Shown piece after piece: positions 1,984-46,506 of a stretch of 64,000 nt of DNA (positions within the stretch are counted from its first letter, which is position 1; each line of letters opens with the position of its first letter). Made by a program: the position numbers and the translations under genes. The notes below the pieces were generated by a model, which made no database searches, was not told the DNA's origin, and was given only the letters and a program-made list of their open reading frames with translations. Source of the stretch: an uncultured Clostridium sp. (lineage in GTDB: Bacteria > Bacillota > Clostridia > TANB77 > CAG-508); contig CAMJYG010000002.1 of assembly GCA_946409935.1 (NCBI GenBank), forward strand, positions 8,202 through 72,201. The letters run 5' to 3'.

Positions 1984-3183
1984 TTAACTATTTCCTAATA
2001 AAAATTTTTCTATATTCAAATGAATAATTCCATTTTGACTATAATCAATTTTATCCATCGTTATTACATACTTTGGATAATTATCTTTTACATAATCAAA
2101 TGCACCAAATTCTCTTTTTATTACTTCGTCACTTGATAAATAGTCTGCTACTTGTATATATTCTCTTTCCCCAAATTTATCAATAACAAAATCAACTTCT
2201 CCCTTTTCTGTCTTTCCTATATATACATCATAACCTCTTGCTATTAATTCATTATATACAATATTTTCTAATCTCCCACCTGTTTTCTTTTCTATTGGTG
2301 AACTCTTTAAAGTTAGTAATCCTAAATCTGTTAAATAATATTTTTCAAGTGTCGCCATTACACTTTTACCTCTGATATCATATCTATTAACTTTATTAAA
2401 AATAGATGATGTAGTTATATATTCAATATAATTCATTACAGTATCAACTGATGTACTTATTTTTTCATTTTTTAAATATCCAGCTATTGAATTAGAAGAT
2501 AGTATTCCTCCAACATTTTCCATCATAAATTGTATAATTCTATTTAATAAATTTATATCTTTTATACTGTTTCTTTCTACTATATCTTTTAATATGATTG
2601 CATTATATAAATCTCTTAAATACATTTTTCTCTCTATCTCGCTATTAGTATTATATATTAATGGCATTCCTCCCCATTCAATATATTCTTCTAATGCTTT
2701 TTCGGTTATTTCTTCATTTTTTGATTTTTTTAATTCTAAAAATTCTGAATATGTAAATGGCATCATTTTTATACTAATAAATCTTCCCGTTAGTACTGTT
2801 GCTAATTCTCCTGAAAGTAATTTACTATTTGATCCGGTAATAAAAATACTAACATCCATGGTTGCTCTAAATGAGTTTATAACTCTTTCAAAATCTTTTA
2901 CATTTTGAATTTCATCAAAAAACAAATAATATTTACGGTTATCTTTTATTTTCTCTTTTACATATTTATTAAATTCTTTGGCTTCTGTATATTCTATAAA
3001 ATCGTAGTCTTCAAAATTTATATATATTATATGATCTTCTTTTATACCTTTTTGTTTTATTTCTTCCATTATTTGATGTAACAATACAGATTTCCCACAT
3101 CTTCTTATTCCCATAATTACTTTAATAAGCTCGCTATCATAAGAATCTCTTATTTTTTTTAAATATAATTCCCTCTTTATCAT
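1984..3183 (-). CDS. AAA ATPase with C-terminal DUF4143/PD-(D/E)xK-like domain
   Basis: Walker A GIRRCGKS, Walker [10 protein letters not shown]-terminal motif GEVDFVI...YIQVAD. Paralog of 25384..26613. SD AGAGGTGA. Confidence 0.85.
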
Positions 3184-12585: not shown

Positions 12586-13995
12586 TTATTCTTGCCAAAA
12601 TGCTTTGTATGTTTTATATGCTGAATAAATATCATATTTGCTTGTTACTTCATAAGGTGCATGCATTGACAAAACTGGAACTCCGCAATCAATTACATCC
12701 GTACCTTTATTAGCTAGTATATATGCTATTGTTCCCCCTCCGCCGATATCAACCTTACCTAATTCAGTTAATTGATATTTAATATCATTTTTTTCTAATA
12801 CATTTCTTACCCAAGCAACATATTCAGCATTTGCATCTGAAGCTCCAGATTTTCCTCTTGCTCCTGTGTATTTTACTAAGGCAATTCCTTTGCCTAAAAA
12901 TCCAGCATTTGTTTTATCTGATACAGATGCATATATTGGGTCATAACCTGCATCAACATCTGATGATAACATTTTTGAAAAACAAAATACTCTATCTAAT
13001 AAATTTGGTCTATTTATTCCTAATTTATTTAAAATTTCAGAAATAAAGAATTCAAACATATGTGATTCCATACCTGTGTTACCCATACTTCCAATTTCTT
13101 CTTTATCTGATAAAATACAAACTGCTGTATTTTTAACATTTTTTAATTCCATCATAGCTGCTAGAGATGTATATGCACACACTTTGTCATCTTGACCATA
13201 TGCTGCAACCATACTCTCATCAAACCCCATGCTTCTTGCTCTAAAACATGGAACCAATTCAATTTCTGCACTTGTTAAATCCGCTTCTACTATTCCATAC
13301 TTTTTATTTAAGATATTTAAGATATTTAGTTTTACCTTTTCAGATAATTTATCTGAATCTTTATCTTCTTTATATGGAATACTTCCTATTAGAAGGTTTA
13401 AATTTTCACCTTCAATACCATTACTTAATGTCTTTTTCATTTGCTCTTGAGCTAAATGTGGTAGTAAATCTGTAATAGTGAAAATTGGATCATTTTCATC
13501 TTCTCCAATATTTATTTCTATTTTTTCTCCGCTTGTTTTTACAATAACTCCATGTAAACTAAGTGGTATTGTTGTCCATTGATATTTTTTTATTCCTCCA
13601 TAATAATGTGTTTTAAAATATGCAAAACCTGTATCTTCATACAATGGATTTGGTTTCAAATCTAATCTTGGGGAATCAACATGTGAACCTATAATATGCA
13701 TTCCATTTTCTATAGTATTTTCGCCTATTACAGCTAAATACATACTCTTTCCTCTATTTACAAAATATATTTTGTCACCTGGTTTTAAAGATTCAAATTC
13801 CATTATATCTTTATAGCCATTTTCATCAGCTAGTTTTCTTGCTTGCTTAATAAATTCTCTTTCTGTTTTGGCTTTATTTAAAAAGTCCATATATTTTTTT
13901 GAAATTCCATAAATTTCTTGCATCTGGTTTTCATCAGCTGACTCCCATCCATTTTTTTTCTTATTAAAAAGTTTTTCTTTTAATTCTTCTCCCAT
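12586..13995 (-). CDS. M18-family aminopeptidase
   Basis: HVDSPRLDLKPNP motif and length typical of M18 aminopeptidases. Start moved to MGEELKEKL for the SD. Confidence 0.8.
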   Translation of the reverse strand: MGEELKEKLFNKKKNGWESADENQMQEIYGISKKYMDFLNKAKTEREFIKQARKLADENGYKDIMEFESLKPGDKIYFVNRGKSMYLAVIGENTIENGMHIIGSHVDSPRLDLKPNPLYEDTGFAYFKTHYYGGIKKYQWTTIPLSLHGVIVKTSGEKIEINIGEDENDPIFTITDLLPHLAQEQMKKTLSNGIEGENLNLLIGSIPYKEDKDSDKLSEKVKLNILNILNKKYGIVEADLTSAEIELVPCFRARSMGFDESMVAAYGQDDKVCAYTSLAAMMELKNVKNTAVCILSDKEEIGSMGNTGMESHMFEFFISEILNKLGINRPNLLDRVFCFSKMLSSDVDAGYDPIYASVSDKTNAGFLGKGIALVKYTGARGKSGASDANAEYVAWVRNVLEKNDIKYQLTELGKVDIGGGGTIAYILANKGTDVIDCGVPVLSMHAPYEVTSKYDIYSAYKTYKAFWQE

Positions 13996-14206
13996 TTTAA
14001 ACTCACATTCCTTTCTCGCTTCGTTTGGAAGGCACACATAGCGTTTGAAAAAAATCAAAGTAGACATTTCTAAAATTATATTTTTTCAAACTTTTCCTTC
14101 TTTTATTTTATACTATATCACTATATAAAATATTTTTCCAGTTTTTTTATAATTTATTCTAAAAAAATGGTTATACTAACTTAAAAAGAAAGGAATGTTT
14201 ACAAAA

Positions 14207-15712
14207 ATGAATTCTATATGGTTAGACTCAATAAAAAATAAAAACCAATTTGAAACTTTATCTAAAAATTTAGAAACAGACATCTGCATTATAGGAGCAG
14301 GAATGTTTGGAATAACTTGTGCATATTATTTAAACAATTTAGGCTTTGATGTTACAGTTTTAGAAAAAGATGACATATGTTCAAAAACTACTGCATTTAC
14401 TACTGGAAAAATAACAAGCCAACATGGATTATTTTATAATTATTTAATTAATTCTTACGGAAATGCATTTGCTAAAGATTATTTAGAATCTAACGAAAGT
14501 GCAATTAAAAATATAAAAAATATTATAGATACTGAAAAAATAAACTGTGATTTTGAATACCAAAATAATTATGTTTATACTACAAAAAAATCTGAAATAT
14601 TTTCTATAAAAAAAGAAGTTGATTCTGTTAATTCTTTAGGTTTTAATTGTGACTTTGTAACTAAAACCGGCCTTCCCTTTGAAATAGAAGGAGCTATATG
14701 CTTTAAAAATCAGGCTCAATTTAACCCTTTAAAATATATTCATGGTTTATGTAAAAAAATAATTAACAATAATGGAAAAATATTTACTCACACAACTGCA
14801 ATAGACATAAAAAAGGATGAACAGAATTATTTAGTATTTACAGATAAAAACTATGTTAAAGCAAAGTTTGTAATTGTTGCAACTCATTACCCATTTCTAA
14901 AAATTTCTGGCTTATATTTTACAAAAATGTATCAATCTACATCATATATTATAGCAATTGATCCTAAAAAAACATTAAACAATGGTATGTATATTAATAA
15001 TTCTGCTCCTATCTTCTCTTTTAGAACAGCAAAATTTAATAATAAAAATATATTATTAATTGCAGGTTCGGATCATAAGAGTGGAAAACCAACCTCTTAC
15101 AAAGATAGTTATGGCGTTTTAGAAGATATAGCCAAAAAATATTATCCTAATTGTGAAATTTTATATAAATGGAATACTGAAGATTGTATTTCTATCGACA
15201 AAATTCCCTATATAGGTAGCTATTCTCTTTCTATGCCAAATGTGTTTGTTGGTACTGGTTTTAAAAAATGGGGAATGACTTCTTCTAATGTAGCTGCAAA
15301 TATTATTGTAGATAAAATATGTAATAAAACTAATAAATACGAATACATGTATAATTCATCTCGATTAAAACCTATTAAAAATTTGGATGAATTTAAAAAT
15401 ATGATGGTTCAAAGCACTAATTCTTTATTTCTTGATAAATTAAAATCTCCAAATATGTCTTTTGAAAAAATAGCTATTAATTCTGGAAGTATTATTGAAG
15501 TTAATAATGAGAAGGTTGGAATTTATAAAGATACTTCTGGAGATATCCATGCTGTAAAACCTATTTGCACTCATCTTGGTTGCTTACTTTCTTGGAATGA
15601 CCTAGATAAAACATGGGATTGTCCTTGTCACGGTTCTCGTTTTGATTATGACGGAAAAAATTTATATAATCCTGCTTTTAAAAATCTAGAAGTTTATAAT
15701 TTGTCAGATTAA
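14207..15712 (+). CDS. FAD-dependent oxidoreductase fused to a C-terminal Rieske [2Fe-2S] domain (YhfW-like)
   Basis: Dinucleotide fold ICIIGAGMFG. Rieske motifs CTHLGC and CPCHGS. Confidence 0.85.
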   Translation: MNSIWLDSIKNKNQFETLSKNLETDICIIGAGMFGITCAYYLNNLGFDVTVLEKDDICSKTTAFTTGKITSQHGLFYNYLINSYGNAFAKDYLESNESAIKNIKNIIDTEKINCDFEYQNNYVYTTKKSEIFSIKKEVDSVNSLGFNCDFVTKTGLPFEIEGAICFKNQAQFNPLKYIHGLCKKIINNNGKIFTHTTAIDIKKDEQNYLVFTDKNYVKAKFVIVATHYPFLKISGLYFTKMYQSTSYIIAIDPKKTLNNGMYINNSAPIFSFRTAKFNNKNILLIAGSDHKSGKPTSYKDSYGVLEDIAKKYYPNCEILYKWNTEDCISIDKIPYIGSYSLSMPNVFVGTGFKKWGMTSSNVAANIIVDKICNKTNKYEYMYNSSRLKPIKNLDEFKNMMVQSTNSLFLDKLKSPNMSFEKIAINSGSIIEVNNEKVGIYKDTSGDIHAVKPICTHLGCLLSWNDLDKTWDCPCHGSRFDYDGKNLYNPAFKNLEVYNLSD

Positions 15713-17422: not shown

Positions 17423-17680
17423 TTAACATTTTACTATTTTCTTCAATTTGTTTTTACCAAATTGAATTACTAAGCCATTTTCAATTTTTATTATTTTATT
17501 TATATCAGTTTCTAAATTAGAATTAATTTTTATGCCATTTCCTTGTATCATTCTTTTAGCTTCACCTTTAGAGTTAGCAAAATTGATTTTTATCAATAAT
17601 TCACAAATATTCATTTCGTTTTCTGATATATTAAATTCTTCAATATCTTCAGGAATACTTCCTTTGGCAACTATAATTAT
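17423..17680 (-). pseudogene. tyrS: orphan 3' fragment of a tyrosyl-tRNA synthetase gene (S4-like C-terminal domain)
   Basis: KGSIPEDIEEFNISENEMNICELLIKINFANSKGEAKRMIQGNGIKINS...GKNKLKKIV matches the TyrRS C-terminus. It has no N-terminal catalytic part and overlaps the tail of RepA_N in another frame. Confidence 0.7.
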
Positions 17681-18134
17681 TCTTATTATATTTATTATTA
17701 TTAGGTCGTAATTTTTCCGATTCTTGATTCGTAAAATTTCCGTTTCTTGAATCGTAATTTTTACGAGTCATAAAATTGCTAGTAGGTTCATGATTTATTT
17801 TACCTACATATATAATATTGTTTTTCTTAAAGCCTTGTCTTTTTTCATAAATAAGTTTGCAATCTGTTAATTGCTTAAAAGATTTTGTAACTGTTTTATC
17901 AGATAAATTTAATTTTTCTTGTGCTTCTTTTCTTGAAAATATTAGAAATATATTTCCATCTTCATCTACCCATTTATTTTGCATAGATATTGATAATCTA
18001 TCAAGTAATAATGCATATAGCAATTTACTTTCTGCTGATATATTTTTATAATATGGGTTTTTAAATAATTCTTTTGGAATTTGGTAGAAAACATTTTCAA
18101 GATATTCATTTATTTTATAAGGTATAAAATCCAT
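17649..18134 (-). CDS. RepA_N-type replication initiator (probably C-terminally truncated)
   Basis: FYQIPKELF...LSAESKLLYALLLDRLSIS...IFLIFSRKEAQEKLNLSDKTVTKSFKQL. Paralog of 38978..39577. Confidence 0.75.
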   Translation of the reverse strand: MDFIPYKINEYLENVFYQIPKELFKNPYYKNISAESKLLYALLLDRLSISMQNKWVDEDGNIFLIFSRKEAQEKLNLSDKTVTKSFKQLTDCKLIYEKRQGFKKNNIIYVGKINHEPTSNFMTRKNYDSRNGNFTNQESEKLRPNNNKYNKNNYSCQRKYS

Positions 18135-20162: not shown

Positions 20163-20175
20163 ATGAGGAATGTAT

Positions 20176-21171
20176 ATGGCAAAAAGAAATAGAGGAGAAG
20201 GAACTATTTATTATTCAGCAGCAAGAAAACAATGGATAGGTCAATTTACTAAAACAATTGCAGGAGAAAAGATTAGAAAAAGTGTATATGGTTCCACTAA
20301 AAATGAAGTATCTGAAAAGCTATTAGATTTAAGAGTTGAAATGAAAGATATAGATTTTATTAAAGAAAAAGGTATGCCTTTAATTCAAATAATGGAATTG
20401 ATAAGAGATAAAAAATATAATTCTAATAAAATAAAAGATGGACAATATAGTAGAATCACTAAAACTATTGAAAAAATACAAAGTAGCAAAATTGGAAAAA
20501 TGAATATTAAAGATATAACTGCAGATGATATTCAAGATTTTCTAAATGATAATAAAGAATATAGCAATTCTACAATAAAGAAATTATATGAACAGTTTAA
20601 TCAAGCCTTTGAATATGCTATAAGAAATAAATACATAAAAGATAATCCAATGCGTGAAGTAATAAAGCCTAAAAGTATAAAACAAGATAAAGAGGTTAGA
20701 GCATTAACAATAGATGAACAAAAAAAATTAAGTGATTATTTATTTAAATCATCTATAAAAGATGAAAAATATAAAAATGTTTTTTTAATTCAAATGTATT
20801 TAGGTTTAAGAATTGGAGAAACACTTGCTTTAACAAAAAATGATATTGATTTAGTACAAAAATTATTATTCGTAAATAAAACAACAACTATCGGGAAAAA
20901 TGGTGAAACTATAATTGGAGATTCTACAAAAACTTATGCAGGTAGAAGAAGTGTTCCAATACCCAATTTTATGATACCAATATTTAAAGAGCAATTAGAT
21001 ATTTCAAAAAATAATAGAGATAATTATTTATTTTTAAATGATGATAAATTAATTACAAATTCTGCTTGTAATAGCAGATTAAAAAGAATTATAAATGATA
21101 TATTAGGTTGGCAAAATAATTCATTTTCTTCACATAGTTTAAGACATACTTTCAGAAGAAATTTATATTGA
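20176..21171 (+). pseudogene. int: tyrosine recombinase/integrase, C-terminally truncated
   Basis: Arm-binding N-terminus GEGTIYY..KQWIGQF, catalytic GLRIGETLAL and HSLRHTF. The frame then ends without the HxxR...Y region. Junction near 21152. Confidence 0.8.
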
Positions 21172-21356: not shown

Positions 21357-21782
21357 CTAACCTAAATATTTAAAAACTTGCTCTGGATATATTTTTAATT
21401 CTTTATTTATAAATCTTTTAGTATCTATCCATACTGCATCAGTTTCACAATTGTCATCAATTATATGGTATTTTTCTTTATAATCTTCATCTTTTATATC
21501 AACATTATAAAATAATATTAATTCATGAGCATTTTTTCCATTATAAGTAAATATATTTTCTGAAATTCCTAAAAATTCTCCTACATTAATTTCTATATTA
21601 AGTTCTTCTTTAAATTCTCTTTTTAATGCATCCTTACTATTTTCTAAAAATTCAATTCCTCCACCTATACTTCTATAGAATATTTCATTTTTAACATTAT
21701 CATACCCTTTACTAACTAATATTTTGTTGTCTTTTTTTACCATTCCGAGAACAATAGGTCTTATTTCTTTAAATTTATCCAT
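21357..21782 (-). CDS. NUDIX hydrolase
   Basis: Nudix box GGGIEFLENSKDALKREFKEELNI. SD GGAGGG. Confidence 0.9.
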   Translation of the reverse strand: MDKFKEIRPIVLGMVKKDNKILVSKGYDNVKNEIFYRSIGGGIEFLENSKDALKREFKEELNIEINVGEFLGISENIFTYNGKNAHELILFYNVDIKDEDYKEKYHIIDDNCETDAVWIDTKRFINKELKIYPEQVFKYLG

Positions 21783-23944: not shown

Positions 23945-24766
23945 TTAAATTCTATAAACTTCTCCTATTCTCATACCAGTTGTAAGTAATAATAAAAATA
24001 AATATTTATGTTTACATTTATAGATAGGTGTAGCTTCAAGATAATCAATAAGTTGTTTTTCTTTTTCTAGAGTAAGAGCTATTTTTTGAGGTACAACTTT
24101 TGCAATCTTCGTTTTAGGCTTTTCAATAGCATTGTAACCATCCATATAATTATCTTTAATTAAATTCTGACTATAAGCATAATCAAAAGCCCTTTTTATA
24201 ATTCTAAACCTTTCTTTAATTGTAGTAGGAGAATATTCAGCCAGTTCATTTAAATAATCTACAATTTCCAATCTACTAACTTTGTTAATAGGTTTCGTAG
24301 TAAAAGCACTCTTTTCAAGCATTTTCAAATTTGTAGTATTCTTATTGTGAGTGTTGCTATTGATTTTATGAAGTTTGTAGTCCTCCATGTAAAGTGGTGT
24401 AGCAATATCAATAATAGATAAATTTGTTTTATTAATTATTCTAGGTCCACCATTTTTATCTATATTGAGTTTTGCCTCTAATGCTAAACTCAATGCTTGC
24501 TCTTCTGTTTCTGCAACAAATGTCTTTTTTAATTCTTTTCTAGTTATTGTATCTCTACCTAGAATAACTGTAGCTTTACTTGTTTGAGAAAAGTAAAAAT
24601 TGTTACAGCCACTATCTCTACAAATATGCATTCTTTCTAAACTGTCAGCTAATTGATATTTTTTGCTTTTACATATTTCGCAATTTTCACATACACTCTT
24701 ATCAACATTCTTTTTAGGTCGAATAGAGGGGTATGTTCCATAAGTTATTCCATTAATTTTACTCAT
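23945..24766 (-). pseudogene. int: tyrosine integrase, truncated just after the first catalytic Arg
   Basis: Cys-rich N-terminus, SAM-like core-binding region (RFRIIKRAFDYAYSQNLIKDN), and TTGMRIGEVYRI followed by a stop. The rest of the catalytic domain is missing. Confidence 0.75.
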
Positions 24767-25383: not shown

Positions 25384-26613
25384 ATGGAATATTATAGAAG
25401 AGAAAATTATTTAAAAAGAATAAGAAACTTTTATGATGACGGTAGTATTATTAAAGTTATTACTGGTATTAGAAGATGTGGAAAATCAACTTTACTAAAA
25501 TCAATTATTGAAGAATTGCAAGAAAAAGGAGTACCAGAAAAAGATATTATCTCCATAGAATTAGATAAAAAAGAATTTAAAAAAATCGTAACACCAGAAC
25601 AATTAGAAGAAGAAATAGATAAAAGAATAACAGACAATGATTTTAAATATTTATTTATTGATGAAATAGAAAATGTTAGAAACTTTGAACCTGTTATTAA
25701 TGCTTACAGAGAAGAAGGCAATATATCAGTATTTATAACTGGATCTAATTCATATTTACTTAGCGGAGAATTAATAACTAAATTAACAGGCAGATATATT
25801 GAATTTGAAATGATGCCATTAAATTTTTACGAATATATAGGAATGAAAAAATTTTTAAATAAAGAAATAAATTCAAACATTTATATAGAATTCGAAGATT
25901 TTATTAAAAATGGCGGATTCCCAGGTGCTTTGTATTATGATGAATTTGAAGATAAAATTACTTATATTTCAAGTGTTGTGCAACAGATATTTGAAAAAGA
26001 TATTAAAACAAATAATAAAATAAAAGATGTTGCATTATTTGAAGTAATAGAAAAATTCATAATAAATAATTTTGGAAGTGTAATATCAGTAAGCAGTATT
26101 TATGAATATCTAGTAAAAAAAGAAAAATTAAAAGTTGATAGAAGAACTTTAAAAAGATATATTGATATTTTAGAAAAAGCAAAAATAATTTATTCATGTG
26201 ATTTATTTGATATAAAATCAAAAATGGTTTTAAAAGGTGAGAAGAAATATTATTTAGCTGATTTTAGTATTTATTATACTCTAAATACTGATAATAGAAT
26301 AAGCTATGGACCAATGCTTGAAAATATAGTATATAATTATTTAAAAAGCAAAAATTATAATTTAAGTGTTGGAAAAATAGGGAAGTTAGAGTGTGATTTT
26401 ATTGCAAGAAAAGATTTTGATAAATATTTTTATATTCAAGTTTCTAAAACTATTGCAGATGAAAAAGTTGAAGAAAGAGAATATAAACCATTTTATGAAA
26501 TAAAAAATATGTATCCTAAATATTTGTTTACATCTGATGTTCTTTTGCAAGATAGAGATGGTGTAATAAATGTAAATATTGCTGATTTTATATATAATAA
26601 TAAAGAATTATAA
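25384..26613 (+). CDS. AAA ATPase with C-terminal DUF4143/PD-(D/E)xK-like domain
   Basis: Walker A GIRRCGKS, Walker B YLFIDEIE. C-terminal LECDFIA...YIQVSK. SD GAGGTGA. Confidence 0.85.
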   Translation: MEYYRRENYLKRIRNFYDDGSIIKVITGIRRCGKSTLLKSIIEELQEKGVPEKDIISIELDKKEFKKIVTPEQLEEEIDKRITDNDFKYLFIDEIENVRNFEPVINAYREEGNISVFITGSNSYLLSGELITKLTGRYIEFEMMPLNFYEYIGMKKFLNKEINSNIYIEFEDFIKNGGFPGALYYDEFEDKITYISSVVQQIFEKDIKTNNKIKDVALFEVIEKFIINNFGSVISVSSIYEYLVKKEKLKVDRRTLKRYIDILEKAKIIYSCDLFDIKSKMVLKGEKKYYLADFSIYYTLNTDNRISYGPMLENIVYNYLKSKNYNLSVGKIGKLECDFIARKDFDKYFYIQVSKTIADEKVEEREYKPFYEIKNMYPKYLFTSDVLLQDRDGVINVNIADFIYNNKEL

Positions 26614-34605: not shown

Positions 34606-35742
34606 ATGATTAAAAATAAAAATGTTATTTTTAAATTTCTATTAACATTAGTATTCATTAGTATTTTTACTCTTAACGGAAAGGTAGATGCAGTTAGTCA
34701 AATTTTAGGCGATGTAAATTTGGATGGAGAAATTGATATATCAGATGCGTTATTAGTTTCAAGATATGCAGAAGGTCTTACAAAATTAAGTAAGCAGGCA
34801 TTAAAAAATGCAGATGTAAATTTAGATGGAAAAGTTAATAAAACAGATGCTAAACTTATAAGCAAAAAAGATGCAGGTTACGATATACAATTCCCATATG
34901 TATTAAGATACGGAGATGTAAATCTAGATGGAAAAGTAGATATTAGTGATGCCCACTTATTGCTTCAAGCATTAAGAAAGAAAACAAATTTAAGTTCACA
35001 AGCAAAAAGAAATGCTGATGTTTACAAAGATGGAAAAATAGATATGGCTGACACAATTATGATATCAAGATTTGATGCGGGATTATTAAAGAAACTCCCA
35101 TATAGTCCACAACTTGGAGATGTTAATTTTGATGGAACAATTGACGTTGCAGATGCACTTTTGATATCAAGATATGTTAAATTTGGAGGATATTATCAAG
35201 GAAAACAAATTTTAAATTTGGCTCAACAACATAATGCAGATTTTAATCAAGATGGAGAAATAAATATGACAGATGCAAACTTAATAGCTAAGTCAGACGC
35301 AGGATTAGAAACTCAAAATTCAAGCAATTTGTCTGGGGATGTTAATATGGATGGCAAAGTAAATATTGCTGATGCTCTTATGATAGCAAGATATTTAAAA
35401 CAAGTAACAGATTTAAGCCTACAGGCTCAACAGAATGCAGATGTTGATAAAAATGGAGTAATAAATAATGCAGATGTAAATTTAATAAGTAAATATGATG
35501 CTAAACTGATAAAAACATTACCATCTAAACCTATCTTATATGGCGATCTTAATTCAGATGGAAAAGTTACAATAGCGGATGCACTAAAATTAGCAAGATT
35601 TAAAAATGGTTTAGTAGAACTTACTGAGGCACAAAAACATATAGCAGATGTAAATTGTGATGGAAAATTAGATGATGACGATATCTCATTAATTAGCAAA
35701 TATGAAACTAAACTAATTGATGTGTTACCAGTTAATCAATAA
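34606..35742 (+). CDS. secreted protein consisting only of five tandem type-I dockerin modules
   Basis: Signal peptide, then ten EF-hand-like segments (GDVNLDGxIDISDAL / ADVNxDGKxxxxD) in five pairs. Confidence 0.85.
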   Translation: MIKNKNVIFKFLLTLVFISIFTLNGKVDAVSQILGDVNLDGEIDISDALLVSRYAEGLTKLSKQALKNADVNLDGKVNKTDAKLISKKDAGYDIQFPYVLRYGDVNLDGKVDISDAHLLLQALRKKTNLSSQAKRNADVYKDGKIDMADTIMISRFDAGLLKKLPYSPQLGDVNFDGTIDVADALLISRYVKFGGYYQGKQILNLAQQHNADFNQDGEINMTDANLIAKSDAGLETQNSSNLSGDVNMDGKVNIADALMIARYLKQVTDLSLQAQQNADVDKNGVINNADVNLISKYDAKLIKTLPSKPILYGDLNSDGKVTIADALKLARFKNGLVELTEAQKHIADVNCDGKLDDDDISLISKYETKLIDVLPVNQ

Positions 35743-36699: not shown

Positions 36700-37531
36700 T
36701 ATGTCGAAAATGCTTAGCCTATTTTTGAAAAACTACTAAAAAAATTACCTTTCTCTACTTTTCTTTTTCTCCTGTTTTCCTTTTACAAATTCCTCTGCCC
36801 TTTGTTTTTCTAATTCTCTTACTTTATATTCTGCAACTAATTTTTCTAACTAATCTTACTCTTCTTGAAAAATATGGAGCTTTTACTGTAAAATGTTGTC
36901 CTCTGTCGTTTATCTCGTAACCTTTTGAATATAGTCTAAATTTAAATTCTTCGTACGTTTTAGCCTCTTTTATTGCATAATCTATATCATTTATTATCCT
37001 TTGCATTTTTTTGTCAGAACGGTTAAATTTGTCGACTTGCTTTTGTCTATAAGATTTCTGTTTTTCAGCTTTTTCTGTTTTTATAACAGATAACCCATAT
37101 TCTTCACATAGCGTATCTGATGTATCTCTTATTAGTGCAATCTATGTTTTACCATTGTGATATTTTTTTCCATCTATAAATGATACTGAATTTAGTAGGA
37201 TATGGTTATGAACATTTGCTTTGTTTATATGTGTACATATTATAATCTGATATTTATCACCCCACAATTCATATGCTAACTTTCTTCCAATTTCATTTGC
37301 TGTTTCATCTGATACTTCATTTCCATTAAATGATTGAATAATATGGTATCCTTGTACTTTATCTTCTTTATGAAAAAATCTTTTAGTTAATGCCATTTCT
37401 TCATAGGCATTTGTTTGTAGGCAATTTATTGCTGAAACTAATAGTCCTTTATCTGTTTTGTCTCCATTTTTTGCATAATCAATAACTCCATTTAAATTAT
37501 TTTTTATTGTTTTTATCTTTATTACTGCCAT
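36700..37531 (-). pseudogene. MobA/VirD2-type relaxase broken by stops/frameshifts
   Basis: N-terminal part is intact (HIIQSF...HINKANVHNHILLN histidine triad) and ends at 37142. It continues in other frames (IALIRDTSDTLCEEYGLSV..., MQRIINDIDYAIKEAK...). Confidence 0.75.
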
Positions 37532-37574
37532 CTTTTTCTCCTTCTATTTATAAATAGCATCAGTAATTTTCAAC

Positions 37575-37904
37575 TTACTTTAATTTTTGTCTTGAATAAA
37601 TTTTCTTTTCAAACTCCATAATAAAATCTTTTATTGAGTTTTTGATATATTCTAAATCTTGCCCTCTAATATATTGAAACAGGTATGAGTTATGTGTTAT
37701 TTGATTTATATTATTTGCAACTCCTGTTAACTTTCTGTGCATATCTTTTATTTTTTCAGTTGGTTGTTCCTTTATTTTGTAACCTTTGATACAACTTCTT
37801 AAAAATTCTGCTTCAGTTAGTCCTGCTTTGTCTGATTTTTGTTTTAATAATTTATTTTCTTTTGCATCTAGCCATAACTGTTTTTTTATTGTCCTTTTTC
37901 TCAA
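37575..37904 (-). CDS. mobC: MobC-family relaxosome accessory protein
   Basis: LTEAEFLRSCI...LTGVANNINQI motif. TTG start with an AAAGGAG SD. Confidence 0.75.
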   Translation of the reverse strand: MRKRTIKKQLWLDAKENKLLKQKSDKAGLTEAEFLRSCIKGYKIKEQPTEKIKDMHRKLTGVANNINQITHNSYLFQYIRGQDLEYIKNSIKDFIMEFEKKIYSRQKLK

Positions 37905-37969
37905 AATATCGTCTCCTTTCTCAAAAAAATAACAGCCATTTTTTTGACTGCTTTCTTAAATTTATAAAA

Positions 37970-38070
37970 TATTCAAAGGGGTTTGGGGAAAGAATTTTCC
38001 CCATCTAAAATTTTGGCACAAAATTTCAAGCGGTATTTATACGGGAGTATAAATGCGTTGCTTGCTTTTA
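37970..38070. promoter_or_regulatory. candidate oriT region
   Basis: Inverted repeats GGGGAAAGAATTTTCCCC and GTATTTATAC-GGGA-GTATAAATGC immediately upstream of mobC. Confidence 0.35.
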
Positions 38071-38204
38071 ATATTATAACAGCTACAATTTAGCCCCAAA
38101 TTAGCTTTACATACTAAAAACTTATTTATTTTTGATATTTTTTTGGTTCAAAAAAAGGAGAAATTTATTTCAAACTTCCCCTTAAAATTTTATTTTGATT
38201 CTCT

Positions 38205-38522
38205 TTATTTTTCTTTAATTAATCCAACATCTTTTAAGTATAAAAACATTTCTTTACACCCTAATAAGAAGATATCTTTTTCTTCATAATCTTGCATATT
38301 CATATAAATATTTATTAGCTTTTGTAACATTTTACATTCATCTTCGTCTAAAGATACTCTTATATTTTCTTCTAATAAATTTTGTAATTTTGGATATTCA
38401 TTCATTATTTTATCAAATTCACTTTTTAGATTTTTATACTTTAAATTCTTGTCAAATAAATCTATTCTTTTTTCCTCAATAGCTTCATTTAAATACATTT
38501 CATATAATCTTTTTTCTTCCAT
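38205..38522 (-). CDS. hypothetical protein
   Basis: 105-aa ORF with an SD. Confidence 0.6.
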   Translation of the reverse strand: MEEKRLYEMYLNEAIEEKRIDLFDKNLKYKNLKSEFDKIMNEYPKLQNLLEENIRVSLDEDECKMLQKLINIYMNMQDYEEKDIFLLGCKEMFLYLKDVGLIKEK

Positions 38523-38547
38523 ATTTTTTCCCTCTTTTCCTATATTT

Positions 38548-38952
38548 TTAATTATTAACGTTATAAATTATTTCTTTTAAAATTATCTCTTCCGCTCTAT
38601 TTTTTATATTATTCATACACTTTACCCATTCAAGTTGATTATTAGCTTTTAATTCTTCTGTTACATTTTCTTTTTCTGCCATTTGTTTTATTAATATTTC
38701 CATTCGTTCTTCACATTCTTCATCAATATTATGAAGATACTCATTTAATTTTAAATTCATAAATAGAATTGAATAGAGCGGTTTATTGTGTTCTTTTAAA
38801 TATCTTAATTTTAGTTTTCCATATCTTCTAATTGGATAATTTGTACTTTCTGGTGCTAAAACTAGATTTGGCACATAGTAGTAGCCTTGTCCTATATATT
38901 CTATCCCTGTTTTTTCATCTATAAATCTTTCTTTTAATTCTGTATTTTCCAT
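38548..38952 (-). CDS. TnpV-like protein
   Basis: GIEYIGQGYYYVPNL...YLKEHNKPLY...ELKANNQLEWVKCMNNIKNRAEEIILKEIIY resembles Tn4451 TnpV. Confidence 0.6.
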   Translation of the reverse strand: MENTELKERFIDEKTGIEYIGQGYYYVPNLVLAPESTNYPIRRYGKLKLRYLKEHNKPLYSILFMNLKLNEYLHNIDEECEERMEILIKQMAEKENVTEELKANNQLEWVKCMNNIKNRAEEIILKEIIYNVNN

Positions 38953-38977
38953 TTTCTAATTTCTCCTTTTACTTAAT

Positions 38978-39577
38978 TCAATTATAATTAGCATACAACT
39001 TCTCTAATTCCTCAAACTTATAATTTCTACCCTCATAATTACTTTTATTATTTCGAATGCTATAATTATATATATTATTTTTATTTATATTATTATAGTT
39101 ATTATGGACTGTTGATTTTGAACATTCAGGACTGCTGTTTTCATACTCTCCTGACTGCTTATTTTCAGCACTACTAAATTTTAATATTTTTTCATTTTCA
39201 ATCATTCCTATGGTTTTTCCTAAATAAATTATATTTGGTAGATTTTTTCCTTGCTTTTTTTCTTGTATTAGTTTACAATCTTTAAGTAAAGCAATTGCAT
39301 TATCAAGTGCTGCTCGTTTGAGATGAAGTTTTTCTTGAATTTCATCTCTTTTAAATATTACATACATATTATTTTTATCATCATAAAATTTTACTTTTGA
39401 ATTTTTATCTATCTGTTTAAATGATAGCTCTAGCCTATCGGCTAAAATAGAAAACAATAATATTGAATTTGGTGTTAGGGTTTTATATTCGTCCCTTTCT
39501 AGTAGTTCTCTGGGGACTTGTATAAAACTTTTAAAATCATTTTTCTCCCATTTTTTATATGGTGTAAATTTATTCAC
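38978..39577 (-). CDS. RepA_N-type replication initiator
   Basis: FIQVPRELLERDEYKTLTPNSILLFSILADRLELS...VIFKRDEIQEKL. GTG start with a GGGAGG SD. TTCTAGAA palindromes upstream (39610-39735). Confidence 0.75.
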   Translation of the reverse strand: MNKFTPYKKWEKNDFKSFIQVPRELLERDEYKTLTPNSILLFSILADRLELSFKQIDKNSKVKFYDDKNNMYVIFKRDEIQEKLHLKRAALDNAIALLKDCKLIQEKKQGKNLPNIIYLGKTIGMIENEKILKFSSAENKQSGEYENSSPECSKSTVHNNYNNINKNNIYNYSIRNNKSNYEGRNYKFEELEKLYANYN

Positions 39578-39869
39578 TGTTATGACCTCCCTCTATTTTT
39601 TTACTTTTGTTCTAGAATTTTCTAGAAAATAATCCTAAAACGCTTGATATGACAAGATTTCTTTCTCCATTGAAATATTTCTTACTGCTGAATTTTCAAT
39701 TTTTTCTGTTCTAGAAAATTTTTCTAGAACAAAATTTAAGACTTTAGAGGGGTTTTAAAAGACTGAAGACGGAAAAAACACATTATCTCAATTCTTTGAA
39801 ATAATGTGTTTTCAACGCTTTTGATATAATTTTCGTCCTTCTGTAGTTTCCTACAGAATTTCATATTAT

Positions 39870-39945
39870 TGGTCGAGGCGACAGGGATCGAACCTGCGAC
39901 CTCATGGTCCCAAACCACGCGCGCTACCAACTGCGCTACGCCTCG
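39870..39945 (-). tRNA. tRNA-Pro (anticodon UGG)
   Basis: Hand-folded: acceptor CGAGGCG/CGCCTCG, D stem GCGC/GCGC, anticodon loop TTTGGGA, T loop TTCGATC, encoded CCA. Confidence 0.9.
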
Positions 39946-40130
39946 ATATAAAATATCTAATATTTTGCTCAACCGCCTATATATAATATCACATTTTTTT
40001 TTACTTTGCAATAGTTTCTAAATATTTTTTATAAATATTTAATTTAATACTTGAATAATTTAATAATTCAATGTATAATTATTTATATTTATAAAGAAAT
40101 GTAATATTTCTTTATGTTTTTATAATTTAA

Positions 40131-40207
40131 GTACCTGTAGTTTAGCTGGATAAAATGGCAGGCTACGAACTTGCAGACCGGGGGTTCGAATCCCTCCAGG
40201 TACACCA
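40131..40207 (+). tRNA. tRNA-Arg (anticodon ACG)
   Basis: Hand-folded: perfect acceptor GTACCTG/CAGGTAC, anticodon loop CTACGAA, T loop TTCGAAT, encoded CCA. Confidence 0.85.
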
Positions 40208-42325: not shown

Positions 42326-42372
42326 CAAAAAAAGTAAAGAGTTTTTTATTTTACATAAAAAATCTCTTTACT
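42326..42372 (-). terminator. terminator of the deaminase gene
   Basis: AGTAAAGAG...CTCTTTACT stem followed on the minus strand by T7. Confidence 0.7.
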
Positions 42373-42434: not shown

Positions 42435-44942
42435 TTAATTATTAGCTTCCATAATATCTGGATTGTCAGCTAAAATTTTATCGACAATATTTTGTCTGAT
42501 ATTAAAAGGAATAACATATCCTCCTAAAGTTTCTGCTTTGTCAGACAATACAGGAGTGTCCTCATTTACATATATTTTAGCCTTTCCTTTTCCATTTTTA
42601 GCCTCTTGAACTAAATTAGAAACTGGTGAATTTCCATCAAAAGCCATAACTACTGAATTCCTTCTTTCAAAAATCTCGTAATTAAAACTTTTATATATTC
42701 CCATCTCATCACTTTCTATAGAAACTCTAACTCCGTCAAGTTTATCTGTTAATAAGTTCGCAGATTCTTCTTTTGAAACCATTCTAGGAATAATTGCATC
42801 TATTTCAAAATTTTTATTCAAATTTCTGCTTAAATCAATAATTTCTTTTTCATATCCTTGCATTTTATGTCCTATAACAAAATATGCCTTTTTAGCATCT
42901 ACTCTTTTTATTAATTGCTCTAAAATTTTTCTTCCTTCTTCTGTTACTTTTGTTGTTCTTCCTTTTTTATTAAAACTTCCTCCTGCAATTATTATAGGAA
43001 CTTTATTTTCTGGTAATTGTTTTATTTTTTCTTTTAATATTTCTTCTACTTCTATATTATTATTTATTCTCATTTGAACATTATTATTTTTGCTCTTTTC
43101 GTGATTTTCATTTTCTAAAACAGTTAAAGCTTCTTTTATTGTTCTTCCATTTAAAAATTCTACAAATTCTTTTGATTTTCTTTCAAAATATTCTGTTGCT
43201 TGTAAAACTACTTCATCTTCTACTCTTCTCATTTTTTCAAAATCTTCATTAGTCAATCCTAGTAGATTTTGAAGAGCTAATTGTTCATCAATTGTATCTA
43301 TACCATAGAATCCGCATCCATCAGTTCCTTGAACACATCTTACATCATTTTTTAAATATGTTTTTAAAGGATGTAATTCTAAATTACTTAAATTATTTAA
43401 TCGTACATTAGATGTTAATTGAAACTCTACAATTATATTGCCTTCTTTTAATTCTTTTAATAATTTTTTTCCTTCTTTTGAATTCAAATCAGCAGTATAT
43501 AAACCATGACCTAGTCTAACTTTTGGCATTTTTTGTCCAGGTTTTAAAGCTTCTTTTACACATTGAATAGATTTTGAAACATTATCCCTTAGACTATCAT
43601 TCTCACCAGCATGTATTCTAATTGTAAAATCTTTATCTACATCATTTACATATTCTACAAGTTCTTGAATTGCTGGTCTTAAATCTAAAATATCATTAAT
43701 TTCTTCTCCAATAAAATCACTACCCACTACATAAGGGCTTTTTGCAACTGCTTTTAATACATCTAAATTTGCTCTTAAGTAATTTCCACCTATTATTTGG
43801 TCTTTTATTATTGTTAAAGGTACTCTTCTCATGGCAGCTAAAAATCTAATTTTTACACCAGTCTCATTTTCTATATATGGCATTATTTCATGAATTTCTT
43901 CTATCAATTTAATTGCAGGCCCATTAGCCTTAACCAAATCTGTATCTGCAATTTCTATGTAATCTATACTTTGTTTTTTATATTCTCTTGCTATCCACAA
44001 AAACTTATCTTGTCTTAATGTAATATTTTTTAATTCCTCTTTTTTATTATCATCAATCATTAATTTAAGTATTCTTTTTATATCTTTTTCAGGTATTTTA
44101 TCTATTTTTTCTTCATTTAGTTCTATTTTATTTTCATATTCTATACCTTTACAAAATACATATCTATATATATATAATTTTTCAAGGTTTGTAAAAACTG
44201 CTTGTCCATCTTTTAATATTGCTAAACTATTCCTAATTTTTGCGATATTATATTCTGCATTTTCCAAGTTATTTAATATAAAATCTGCAAAATTAATAAA
44301 TGTATTATCATCTATTTTCCTTGTTAAATATTTTCCCTCTAATTTTGAATCTTTATATTGCTTTTCAACTAATTTTCTTTTTTCTAATATCTCTTTTTCT
44401 TGATTTTTAGTCATTCTTAAATTTAACTTTTTAATATAATATAATGGATATCTTAATTGATGTTTAATCCCTAATGCAATTAAAACATCTGGAGAAAGAT
44501 TTGCATTCATATGTGTATGCAAATCTGTTCTGAATTTTGATTTCTTTAAGATATAAGATTTAACAATTGTTTTCTCAATAGGTAGAGTATAGTTTTTAGT
44601 TTGTGACATCAATGTTTTGGTTATTGCTGGTATTTTTGCTTTTATTTCTATATTTCCATTTTCAAAAATATTAGCTATTTTTATTCCACCTAATCTAAGA
44701 ATATAAACAATTTCATTATCACCATTTATACTTGCAGGAATAATTCCTGTTATTATTTTCATATCTTTTTCATTTTTTACTGTTTCAACATTACATAATT
44801 TGGCTAAATTCGTTATTAAATTTCCTGTATTATGATTTGGAGTTTCAAGTACATATAATACTTCATCTGGATTTTCTTTGTATATATTAACTATTATGTC
44901 TTTTTCTTTATCTAAATAAAATTTGTTTAATAATACTTTCAT
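42435..44942 (-). CDS. large adenosine-deaminase-fold protein with an unknown N-terminal domain and a C-terminal Rossmann (SLOG/LOG/DprA-like) domain
   Basis: Deaminase motifs DLHTHMN, IRIHAGEND, RLGHG, FQLTSN, QGTDG. C-terminal PIIIAGGS, YFVIGHKMQGYE, VMAFDGNSPVSNLVQEA. Start at MKVLLNK with an AAAGGAATGG SD. Confidence 0.8.
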   Translation of the reverse strand: MKVLLNKFYLDKEKDIIVNIYKENPDEVLYVLETPNHNTGNLITNLAKLCNVETVKNEKDMKIITGIIPASINGDNEIVYILRLGGIKIANIFENGNIEIKAKIPAITKTLMSQTKNYTLPIEKTIVKSYILKKSKFRTDLHTHMNANLSPDVLIALGIKHQLRYPLYYIKKLNLRMTKNQEKEILEKRKLVEKQYKDSKLEGKYLTRKIDDNTFINFADFILNNLENAEYNIAKIRNSLAILKDGQAVFTNLEKLYIYRYVFCKGIEYENKIELNEEKIDKIPEKDIKRILKLMIDDNKKEELKNITLRQDKFLWIAREYKKQSIDYIEIADTDLVKANGPAIKLIEEIHEIMPYIENETGVKIRFLAAMRRVPLTIIKDQIIGGNYLRANLDVLKAVAKSPYVVGSDFIGEEINDILDLRPAIQELVEYVNDVDKDFTIRIHAGENDSLRDNVSKSIQCVKEALKPGQKMPKVRLGHGLYTADLNSKEGKKLLKELKEGNIIVEFQLTSNVRLNNLSNLELHPLKTYLKNDVRCVQGTDGCGFYGIDTIDEQLALQNLLGLTNEDFEKMRRVEDEVVLQATEYFERKSKEFVEFLNGRTIKEALTVLENENHEKSKNNNVQMRINNNIEVEEILKEKIKQLPENKVPIIIAGGSFNKKGRTTKVTEEGRKILEQLIKRVDAKKAYFVIGHKMQGYEKEIIDLSRNLNKNFEIDAIIPRMVSKEESANLLTDKLDGVRVSIESDEMGIYKSFNYEIFERRNSVVMAFDGNSPVSNLVQEAKNGKGKAKIYVNEDTPVLSDKAETLGGYVIPFNIRQNIVDKILADNPDIMEANN

Positions 44943-45018
44943 TTTAATTCCATTCCTTTTCTTAATACTATTAAACTTTATTTTAACATATTTTACCTTC
45001 CAAATCAATACATTATGT

Positions 45019-46238: not shown

Positions 46239-46506
46239 CAGTCATAGTTATAGATAATAGTTTTATACTATAGAATATAAAAAAGGTTGATATATAAATA
46301 TTTATGAATGTTTCGAATGTGATTGAAGAAGTTATAATCGTTTCTTTAATATAAATTAATGAGGAAGCGCGAAGTATGTAGCGAGAGGCTCGTTGATTTA
46401 TATTTTAGAAACGATATAACTTCGTAATGAACCGAGAAACTGAATAAATATTTATATCCTTTAAAACAAATTATTATGGAAAAACATTATCCATTAACTA
46501 TGACTG
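46239..46506. repeat. 268-bp long hairpin-forming palindrome, family R3
   Basis: CAGTCATAGTTA...TAACTATGACTG ends. Nested arms ATAAATATTTAT and GTTATAATCGTTTCTTTAATATAAAT / ATTTATATTTTAGAAACGATATAAC. Centre near 46372. Confidence 0.85.

Follow-up and report, generated by a model that had tools for sequence, protein, structure and literature searches.

A stand-alone adenosine deaminase-fold protein with a predicted C-terminal SLOG domain in gut Clostridia, a candidate ligand-gated adenine-nucleotide deaminase

The ADA-SLOG gene and its domains

The window analyzed here is a stretch of 64,000 nt from an uncultured Clostridium sp. (contig CAMJYG010000002.1 of assembly GCA_946409935.1), in which a minus-strand gene lying directly downstream of the trypsin-PDZ gene htrA codes for a protein that joins an adenosine deaminase (ADA) fold to a predicted C-terminal SLOG domain, designated ADA-SLOG (Table 1). 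The open reading frame (ORF) runs from position 45008 to 42435 and comprises 857 aa when counted from a TTG codon, or 835 aa from the ATG at 44942; we take this ATG as the correct start, because the database protein P0001, of 835 aa, is 100% identical to the shorter product and hundreds of relatives have lengths of 830-845 aa. The identical protein in public data bears out a previous reading of the window made from sequence alone (hereafter, the sequence-only reading), which had described an 835-aa protein. Likewise, all the motifs it quoted were located in the protein where it had placed them, those of the deaminase at residues 140 (DLHTHMN), 441 (IRIHAGEND), 476 (RLGHG), 507 (FQLTSN) and 538 (QGTDG), and those of the C-terminal domain at residues 649 (PIIIAGGS), 687 (YFVIGHKMQGYE) and 765 (VMAFDGNSPVSNLVQEA). 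The G+C content and composition of the gene are like those of the surrounding DNA, with 26% G+C in the region.

Downstream of the gene there is, as previously proposed, a stable hairpin followed by a U run (-16.5 kcal/mol, z = -4.4, with none of 200 shuffles as stable), and the spacer separating it from htrA has the 76 nt formerly assigned to it. As to the plausible own promoter of the sequence-only reading, this spacer contains a single 9/12 promoter-like match, at 45008-44980; matches of this kind occur in the region at chance level (67, versus 61.6 expected from shuffles). Rfam scans of the window and of the loci of eight relatives revealed neither a riboswitch nor a leader ahead of the ADA-SLOG gene.

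A full-length AlphaFold2 model was built on an alignment of 111 sequences covering two branches of the ADA-SLOG family, with a mean predicted local distance difference test score (pLDDT) of 87.3 and a predicted template modelling score (pTM) of 0.88. In the model, residues 1-135 form a beta-rich N-terminal domain, which is followed by a TIM barrel extending to around residue 565, two long helices (565-617) and an alpha/beta domain (646-835).

The only Pfam family matched by the full protein was A_deaminase (PF00962; E = 3e-19, 69.7 bits versus a cut-off of 27), over residues 318-572 and a second stretch, with no match to CARF. The six residues expected to bind zinc or to participate in catalysis (H142, H144, H444, E447, H479, and D541) show no or almost no variation among the 111 relatives, down to around 25% identity, and align with the canonical ones in structure 6n9m. 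Foldseek comparisons of the barrel retrieved adenosine deaminases (6n9m, 1add, 2pgf, 8qch) and ADAL with E-values around 1e-9, probability 1.0 and target-normalised TM scores of 0.65-0.74, as well as the deaminase domains of Cad1 (E = 6e-8 to 6e-7). In a profile search of the PDB, the nearest solved structures were classical adenosine deaminases from Salmonella, Vibrio and Plasmodium (E = 4e-15 to around 1e-12); the Cad1 chains were insignificant (E = 0.4-0.9) and no RdrB chain was matched at E <= 1. The protein scored 47-55 bits with the NCBIfam equivalogs for Add (TIGR01430/PRK09358), whose cut-offs are 216-459, and no NCBIfam model reached its cut-off. Two positions depart from the canonical site: the second Asp of the TDD motif (D296 in the mouse enzyme) is replaced by a Gly (G542) that is invariant in the 111 sequences, and the window protein has Asn at the position of the canonical Asp19, a ligand of the ribose hydroxyl. 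As judged from alignment and model, the barrel is an ADA fold with every zinc and catalytic residue intact, and the Pfam match, the Foldseek results and the conserved residues agree in this with the fold and the catalytic motifs claimed before.

When searched alone, the N-terminal domain produced no Pfam match at E < 0.04 and nothing significant in the PDB, and the top 50 Foldseek matches of the full model all fell on the deaminase domain and none on this one; the description of an unrecognisable N-terminal domain of around 140 aa was adequate. Its mean pairwise identity within the clade closest to the window protein (close clade) is 80%, equal to that of the catalytic core. The barrel is interrupted after its first strand by an enlarged helical segment in which Lys and Glu add up to 27% of the residues, versus 21% in the whole protein, and the Pfam profile picks up again at residue 318, corresponding to profile position 78. 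This segment holds five residues that are invariant in the 111-sequence alignment (F250, E254, Y257, R260, and K265), and it must therefore be a functional part of the enzyme. The K/E-rich helical insertion after the HxH motif that the sequence-only reading described thus stands as a segment, but not as a pure insertion. The linker connecting the deaminase and SLOG domains, a rigid helical connector in the model, is the least conserved segment of the protein, with 63% identity in the close clade.

The C-terminal domain of the window protein alone retrieved nothing significant from Pfam or the PDB, and the SLOG signal came through its relatives and structure prediction. In one-by-one Pfam scans of 28 C-terminal domains of the family, 12 matched LSDAT_prok ("SLOG in TRPM, prokaryote"; best E = 7e-6), and there were further matches to LSDAT_euk (four), YAcAr (three) and LDcluster4 (three), all of them SLOG families; the SLOG-family bit scores printed for full-length relatives are below the gathering cut-off. 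A separate model of residues 629-835 (pLDDT 79, pTM 0.82) matched with Foldseek the N-terminal domains of TRPM8, TRPM2, TRPM3 and TRPM4 (best E = 9e-5), LOG phosphoribohydrolases (E = 6e-4 to 1e-3), several with bound AMP, and the Moco carrier protein, in the three cases with probability 1.0; all matches had E-values of 9e-5 to 1e-2 and TM scores of 0.5-0.6, and there was no ThsA entry among the top 50. The TRPM matches of a C-domain profile against the PDB were marginal (E = 0.3-1.2), yet they fell on the signature loop: the family loop AYxVTGGTNxGVEK aligns with AWIITGGTNTGVMK from TRPM, with TGGTNxGVEK facing TGGTNTGVMK in the core.

In the model, the glycine loops follow strands 648-653, 686-690 and 764-767. 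Residues P649, G654, G696, G770, Q779 and N783 are invariant in the 111 sequences, with G691 and S656 nearly so. The SLOG domain is about as conserved in the close clade as the catalytic core (identities of 0.76 and 0.81, respectively), indicating that it is not vestigial. Nevertheless, the loops of the window clade, IGHKMQGYE and DGNSPVSN, diverge from the family consensus, TGGTNxGVEK and GGGxxVSD, and the position of the catalytic Glu of LOG (PGGxGTxxE), as located by motif alignment and not by superposition, is occupied by Asn in the whole close clade and is variable across the family. These features suggest that the domain serves for binding and not for LOG-like catalysis. Structure prediction, together with the sequences of the relatives, supports the C-terminal domain as a putative SLOG domain closest to the LSDAT/TRPM and LOG branches. 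Both halves of the ADA plus SLOG-type architecture advanced previously thus find support, that of the SLOG-like half consisting of the Foldseek probability of 1.0 and of LSDAT_prok in 12 of the 28 relatives.

Table 1. Features of the window and of the loci of distant relatives. Positions are those of the window except where preceded by a locus number; residue numbers refer to the 835-aa protein.
Feature	Position	Strand	Basis or remark
ADA-SLOG, complete coding sequence, 835 aa plus stop	42435-44942	-	ORF list, P0001, AlphaFold2 model
N-terminal domain, residues 1-135	44538-44942	-	Model secondary structure; mainly beta strands plus three helices
ADA/AMP deaminase-fold TIM barrel, residues 136-565	43248-44537	-	Pfam PF00962, Foldseek, conservation
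H142, H144	44505-44525	-	Putative zinc/catalytic residues; HxH on first barrel strand
H444, E447	43596-43622	-	Putative zinc/catalytic residues
H479	43503-43517	-	Putative zinc/catalytic residue
D541	43317-43331	-	Putative zinc/catalytic residue
Enlarged K/E-rich helical segment, residues ~151-323	43974-44492	-	Model, Pfam profile; between barrel strands 1 and 2
Long helical linker deaminase/SLOG, residues 566-645	43008-43247	-	Model helices 565-597 and 602-617
Predicted SLOG (LSDAT/TRPM- and LOG-like) Rossmannoid domain, residues 646-835	42438-43007	-	Model, Foldseek, Pfam of relatives
Glycine loop PIIIAGGS	42975-42998	-	SLOG domain
Glycine loop IGHKMQGYE	42849-42884	-	SLOG domain
Glycine loop FDGNSPVSNLVQEAKN	42594-42650	-	SLOG domain
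Intrinsic-terminator-like hairpin, then U run	42326-42372	-	Sequence and folding; 63 nt past ADA-SLOG stop
Spacer htrA/start codon, 76 nt	44943-45018	-	Sequence; purine-rich AAGGAATGGA ahead of ATG
Mobile-element remnant: RepA_N replication protein, TnpV, truncated MobA/VirD2 relaxase	37142-39577	-	~2.9 kb from ADA-SLOG stop
tRNA-Pro	39870-39945	-	Adjoins mobile-element remnant
tRNA-Arg	40131-40207	+	Adjoins mobile-element remnant; tRNA pair 2.2 kb from ADA-SLOG
AAA_14/DUF4143 ATPase paralogs, 40% identical	1984-3183; 25384-26613	-; +	PADLOC candidate PDC-S01, best E = 3e-150
Second RepA_N protein	17649-18134	-	Sequence comparison; 37% identical to RepA_N at 38978-39577
Pair of related proteins	20170-21171; 23945-24766	+; -	May match two DUF2752 hits of Pfam scan
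Dockerin protein, 378 aa, five type I repeats	34606-35742	+	Pfam, E = 7e-62
Long near-perfect hairpin, ~100 nt	46325-46426		Between AMP-binding ligase gene and htrA; sub-threshold plant-miRNA-precursor look-alikes, both strands
Single-module NRPS-like gene, 1426 aa	48718-52998	+	Sequence motifs
PGDYG genes (distant loci)	L085:6414-6929; L089:6082-6750; L091:5333-5977	L089 -	
~150-aa helical protein genes (distant loci)	L091:8445-8885; L093:7465-7926; L095:7182-7640; L087:10900-11367		
NUDIX/inosine-triphosphatase-related genes (distant loci)	L090:8597-10251; L092:8624-11239; L089:10213-10737; L093:9230-9688; L094:9300-9755; L091:1-133, 13696-14226		

Distribution and genomic context

Protein searches with ADA-SLOG matched 5,573 clusters at 90% identity, the best 120 of them full-length and at least 74% identical; after clustering at 50% identity there were 783 clusters at E < 1e-3 and 147 at E < 1e-30. 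Using a pattern derived from a 9-sequence alignment of the family, we found 470 matches encoding a relative in a collection with one genome per species. The best 80 of these 470, with 60-85% identity to the window protein, are all from metagenome-assembled genomes (MAGs) of uncultured gut Clostridia, among them Clostridium sp. CAG:440, Candidatus Scatovivens, Ca. Merdicola and UMGS1672/1673, from the guts of humans, rabbits, goats, chickens and other hosts. One ortholog cluster, at 78% identity, comprises 260 member sequences and is present in 636 blocks of the collection. The family abounds in gut metagenomes from humans and animals, and the sources annotate the protein as "adenosine deaminase". 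Across the loci, the identity of ADA-SLOG to the window protein (62-85%) tracks that of the neighboring HtrA (65-77%), as expected for vertical descent. Additionally, no relatives were found by contig scan and tblastn in IMG/VR viral contigs, GenBank phages or PLSDB plasmids. ADA-SLOG is, therefore, a stand-alone, chromosomally inherited gene with the behavior of a core gene in a lineage of gut Clostridia. Of the two distributions contemplated previously, the patchy or island-associated one did not hold, since the gene is lineage-wide in at least 80 species; for universal presence in synteny with purine genes, the lineage-wide part stood, while synteny proved variable and not specific for purine genes.

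The gene order on the minus strand is AMP-binding ligase, HtrA, ADA-SLOG, a 146-aa membrane protein, PspA, a GIDE-domain protein, the tRNA-Arg/tRNA-Pro pair and a mobile-element remnant. Neighborhoods were compared in 84 loci containing relatives, and immediate neighbors in 81. Genes found within around 3 kb in the 84 loci included those for HtrA (around 20), M23 peptidase (16), a TadA-like deaminase (14) and nonribosomal peptide synthetases (NRPS; 11), and other neighbors in the close clade were Der, Ffh, YlxM, TrmD, L19, RimM, RNase Y, PheT, a P-type ATPase and a ComEB-like dCMP deaminase. Genes for TadA-like or ComEB-like nucleotide deaminases adjoin ADA-SLOG in around 23 of the 81 loci. 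The gaps on either side of the gene are typically of around 100-600 nt, and we found no neighbor conserved throughout the 81 loci, with neighbors varying between lineages, in agreement with the gene having been called stand-alone. A shared function with htrA was rejected, since HtrA is the direct neighbor in just three of the 81 loci. Likewise, we discarded a functional link to the three genes downstream: leaving aside L001, an identical copy of the window segment, the 146-aa gene is kept in one of 80 genome loci, and pspA and the GIDE gene in none.

A gene for a YjbM-type small alarmone (ppGpp) synthetase was found directly upstream of ADA-SLOG in six of the 81 close-clade loci (L040, L047, L051, L056, L060, and L070) and within 6 kb in eight, adding L055 (5349-6107) and one further locus; another lies downstream in the distant locus L095 (10474-11121).

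The sequences downstream of the gene also differ among close relatives, with different mobile elements located right after the ADA-SLOG ortholog in L002 and in L003/L004, which points to an integration hot spot. In the window, a 91-aa ORF at 39736-40011 is the tRNA-Pro gene read as protein.

A distant branch of the family comprises 505 proteins (E < 1e-10) that are 25-30% identical to the window protein and share its N-domain/ADA/SLOG layout; they come from MAGs labeled as Azospirillum sp., Alphaproteobacteria, Ignavibacteriales, Christensenellaceae, Bacilli and Clostridia. We inspected nine independent loci from this branch. A protein with a PGDYG domain (PF14083) is encoded directly upstream in three of them, from different phyla, the three products being 34-50% identical to each other. 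A helical protein of around 150 aa occurs in five, overlapping the stop codon of ADA-SLOG in three, and has homologs 5-6 kb from ADA-SLOG in the close-clade loci L006 and L057. Proteins of 165 and 293 aa are common to three loci, and are fused in one as a 404-aa protein. A 91/92-aa protein and a large NUDIX protein (460/772 aa) are encoded directly downstream in two. NUDIX genes adjoin ADA-SLOG or lie near it in five of the nine loci, one of them Nudt16-like, a family of IDP/ITP hydrolases, and one locus contains Ham1 and YjjX-type (NTPase_I-T) inosine triphosphatases within 6 kb. There is also an integrase, recombinase or methyltransferase gene nearby in four loci, and a relaxase/TnpV in one. 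The gene sets of the distant branch thus resemble a multi-gene system that deals with nucleotides of the inosine or ADP-ribose type. The PGDYG, 150-aa and 165/293-aa partners had no match in the window by tblastn, where the sole NUDIX match (21507-21731) is 20 kb from the ADA-SLOG gene.

Elsewhere in the window, another element may be integrated at around 16-25 kb, to judge by the second RepA_N protein and the two related proteins. The NRPS-like gene, located on the other side of the ADA-SLOG neighborhood, shows condensation (HHLIADSWT), adenylation (YTSGSTGTPKG), carrier (LGADSL) and terminal reductase (GATGYLG) motifs, and a related NRPS holds the same position relative to htrA in the 11 loci mentioned above. 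The dockerin protein is an unusual find in a gut Clostridia MAG of small genome size and may point to cellulosome-like assemblies. The long hairpin upstream of htrA is probably a terminator or a palindromic repeat.

Proposed function and alternatives

As to substrate class, ligand, allosteric coupling and physiological role, we infer a ligand-gated adenine-nucleotide deaminase that responds to an endogenous signal, ADP-ribose-like or another nucleotide, a proposal to which we give an even chance of being right. The central barrel would be an active zinc deaminase of the adenosine/AMP deaminase superfamily. Its most likely substrate is not free adenosine but one of the adenine nucleotides (AMP, ADP, ATP or dATP), which it would convert into the inosine form. 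The LSDAT-type SLOG domain would bind a small nucleotide of the cell, either ADP-ribose-like or another adenine or guanine nucleotide, and the bound ligand would activate or silence the deaminase by way of the long helical linker, of a change in oligomeric state, or of both. Hints of a nucleotide as substrate or ligand are the Asn at the position of Asp19, the Gly in place of Asp296, the NUDIX, Ham1 and YjjX genes of the distant loci, and the YjbM neighbors. An ADP-ribose-like ligand is favored by the TRPM-type affinity of the SLOG domain and by the NUDIX partners of relatives, while the recurrence of small alarmone synthetases among the neighbors makes alarmones an alternative. That the ligand should be endogenous is indicated by the wide gaps flanking the gene and by the lack of a partner gene conserved in the 81 loci. 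The physiological role might be the control of the adenylate or purine pool, e.g., in stress, growth arrest or adenine-to-guanine interconversion, and core-gene behavior in the lineage makes this role more likely than mobile defense.

Several observations weigh against this proposal. What the enzyme acts on, what it binds and in which direction it is regulated are all guesses. The nearest profiles are those of classical nucleoside deaminases, so free adenosine is a possible substrate. Likewise, the window protein lacks a significant Pfam SLOG match and its loops have diverged, and ligand binding could be altered or lost. The Rfam scans found no purine riboswitch or other known cis-regulator tying the gene to purine metabolism, and the distant branch is found in accessory-looking multi-gene contexts resembling conflict systems. 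Additionally, the description as a core gene derives from positive species alone, of which there are at least 80.

The contexts of the distant branch also allow for a broader interpretation, which we put forward tentatively and consider rather unlikely in its full extent: ADA-SLOG would found a new class of adenine-nucleotide deaminases gated by SLOG, which in several phyla operate in multi-gene conflict systems together with PGDYG, NUDIX and small helical partners, with one branch fixed as a stand-alone core gene in a major lineage of uncultured gut Clostridia. In this last branch, an ADP-ribose-type signal would trigger the conversion of ATP/dATP to ITP/dITP, either as a built-in immunity by abortive infection or as a dormancy switch.

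The sequence-only reading had put forward a ThsA/Cad1-style sensor-effector as a candidate. In an anti-phage system of this kind, causing abortive infection, the SLOG domain would sense a messenger made elsewhere, such as an isomer of cyclic ADP-ribose (cADPR) or an ADP-ribose derivative, and the deaminase would turn ATP/dATP into ITP/dITP, as do Cad1 and RdrB, thereby halting the infected cell. Fusions of a sensor to an ADA are proven immune effectors (Cad1, PMC11645235; RdrB, PMC9994260) and SLOG is the sensor of ThsA (PMC7272460), and the barrel matches the Cad1 deaminase domains with Foldseek. Members of the distant branch occur in variable regions that also contain integrase, recombinase and methyltransferase genes, besides unknown partners that are conserved, as a system would, and the window gene is itself close to a tRNA pair and a mobile element, with mobile elements also starting downstream of its relatives. 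However, PADLOC produced no match for the ADA-SLOG protein at E <= 1, and TIR, cyclase, RdrA, CRISPR, Thoeris, HAM1 and SIR2 were all absent from the 25 best families listed per PADLOC or Pfam scan of 44 window ORFs, as the previous call of no RdrA, TIR, cyclase or CRISPR partner had anticipated. The families listed by PADLOC for these ORFs were two AAA_14/DUF4143 ATPases plus cross-hits to ABC ATPase, trypsin and HTH; the two ATPases, the strongest defense matches among the 25 families listed and the sole non-generic ones, are 17 and 39 kb away from ADA-SLOG. Moreover, no partner is conserved in the 81 loci, the gene is lineage-wide at 60-85% identity beside variable housekeeping neighbors, no copy appeared in the phage, plasmid and viral-contig collections searched, and the ADA profile is nearest to classical enzymes, with an insignificant match to Cad1 and none to RdrB. 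We thus consider a defense effector unlikely for the window gene.

The closeness of the profile to the Salmonella, Vibrio and Plasmodium enzymes (E of around 1e-15 to 1e-12) could also indicate an ordinary, constitutive adenosine or adenine deaminase for purine salvage, in which the N-terminal and SLOG domains would serve for oligomerization or stability only. This would accord with the annotation in the sources, with core-gene behavior in small-genome gut bacteria that plausibly depend on salvage, and with the adjacent TadA- and ComEB-like genes. Nevertheless, the protein scores far below all the NCBIfam Add equivalog cut-offs (e.g., 47 bits versus 216) and lacks both Asp19 and Asp296, the latter in favor of an invariant Gly; furthermore, SLOG loops that are invariant down to around 25% identity, in a domain as constrained as the core, are hard to explain as a scaffold, all of which makes simple salvage quite improbable.

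A bifunctional enzyme, in which the SLOG domain would continue the work of the deaminase as a nucleotide N-glycosidase similar to LOG or PpnN (e.g., from AMP to IMP, and then to hypoxanthine plus ribose-5-phosphate), appears the least probable, and only barely credible: LOG phosphoribohydrolases, several of them AMP-bound, are among the best structural matches and, by our own motif alignment, most members of the distant branch have the Asp of GGGxxVSD at the place of the LOG catalytic Glu, but the window protein and its whole clade have Asn there (DGNSPVSN), the position is not invariant in the family, the LOG element MHxRK is not visible in the alignment, and the best sequence and profile affinity is with the LSDAT/TRPM branch, which binds ligands and is not known as catalytic.

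Deaminases that turn ATP or dAMP into inosine nucleotides have only recently been seen as immune effectors (RADAR, Cad1, Kongming), and SLOG is a sensor both in Thoeris and in TRPM2, an animal channel gated by ADP-ribose. Should the deaminase prove to be gated by its SLOG domain, ADA-SLOG would offer a compact single-protein model for the control of an enzyme by a TRPM-type pocket, a route to a new endogenous or immune nucleotide signal, and an explanation for the control of the adenylate pool in a gut lineage with reduced genomes. If the broader class exists, it would be a fourth deaminase-based immune architecture, after RdrB, Cad1 and KomA, linking TRPM-type ADP-ribose sensing to deamination. 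In any case, the coexistence of a stand-alone core branch and of a branch in multi-gene clusters is a testable case for the domestication of a conflict system.

Comparison with known systems

We found no description of an ADA-SLOG fusion in the searchable literature, in line with the sequence-only reading, which knew of none, although it may be listed in Burroughs et al. 2015, who reportedly defined SLOG; searches for "LSDAT" retrieved TRP-channel and unrelated papers only.

Cad1 is a CARF-fused adenosine deaminase of type III CRISPR systems (PMC11645235, PMC12669630). As in ADA-SLOG, a Rossmann-like nucleotide sensor and an ADA-fold effector reside in one large polypeptide, and the deaminase domains superpose with Foldseek. 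However, the sensor of Cad1 is CARF and N-terminal, whereas that of ADA-SLOG would be SLOG and C-terminal; ADA-SLOG is also extended by an N-terminal domain and by the enlarged helical segment, and behaves as a core gene and not as a CRISPR accessory. The lack of a Pfam match to CARF and of CRISPR-associated families among those listed for the window, together with profile E-values of 0.4-0.9, separate it from the Cad1 family.

ThsA, from type I Thoeris, is a SIR2-SLOG protein whose SLOG domain is a proven sensor of cADPR-type signals (PMC7272460), and it resembles ADA-SLOG in carrying a SLOG domain and an enzymatic effector in the same polypeptide. Nevertheless, the effector is here a deaminase and not SIR2, no ThsB/TIR is among the families listed for the window, and the SLOG domain groups by Pfam and Foldseek with the LSDAT/TRPM and LOG branches. 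Structurally, the C-terminal domain is matched best by the MHR1/2 region of TRPM channels (LSDAT_euk/LSDAT_prok), with which the family shares the loop TGGTNxGV(E/M)K; in TRPM2, the LSDAT-type domain binds ADP-ribose. In ADA-SLOG, however, the fusion partner of the domain is a soluble deaminase and not an ion channel, and the window loops have diverged (IGHKMQGYE). Likewise, the LOG/PpnN phosphoribohydrolases share the SLOG fold and the glycine loops after strands 1, 2 and 4 (E around 1e-3, TM 0.5-0.6), but they are free-standing proteins, not fused to a deaminase, and the window clade has Asn in place of their catalytic Glu.

RdrB from RADAR (PMC9994260) and KomA from Kongming (bioRxiv 10.1101/2024.12.20.629578) are ADA-fold immune enzymes acting on adenine nucleotides (ATP/dATP, dAMP), both without a SLOG domain, unlike ADA-SLOG. 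For RdrB, no RdrA model is among the families listed for the window and the protein has no PADLOC match; for KomA, the gene is flanked by htrA upstream and the 146-aa membrane protein, pspA and GIDE genes downstream, with no KomB (HAM1) or KomC (SIR2) listed. The closest solved relatives are Add (TIGR01430) and the N6-methyl-AMP deaminase ADAL/MAPDA, with the same TIM barrel and HxH/H/E/H/D site. ADAL has Asn and not Asp after HxH, as does the window protein. Compared with Add, ADA-SLOG is 2.5 times larger, includes three extra modules, does not reach the equivalog cut-offs and has Gly for the second Asp of TDD; owing to insertions, RdrB too exceeds Add by far in size. Falling outside the Cad1 and ThsA families, as well as those of RdrB, KomA and canonical Add, ADA-SLOG nonetheless resembles Cad1 and ThsA in design.

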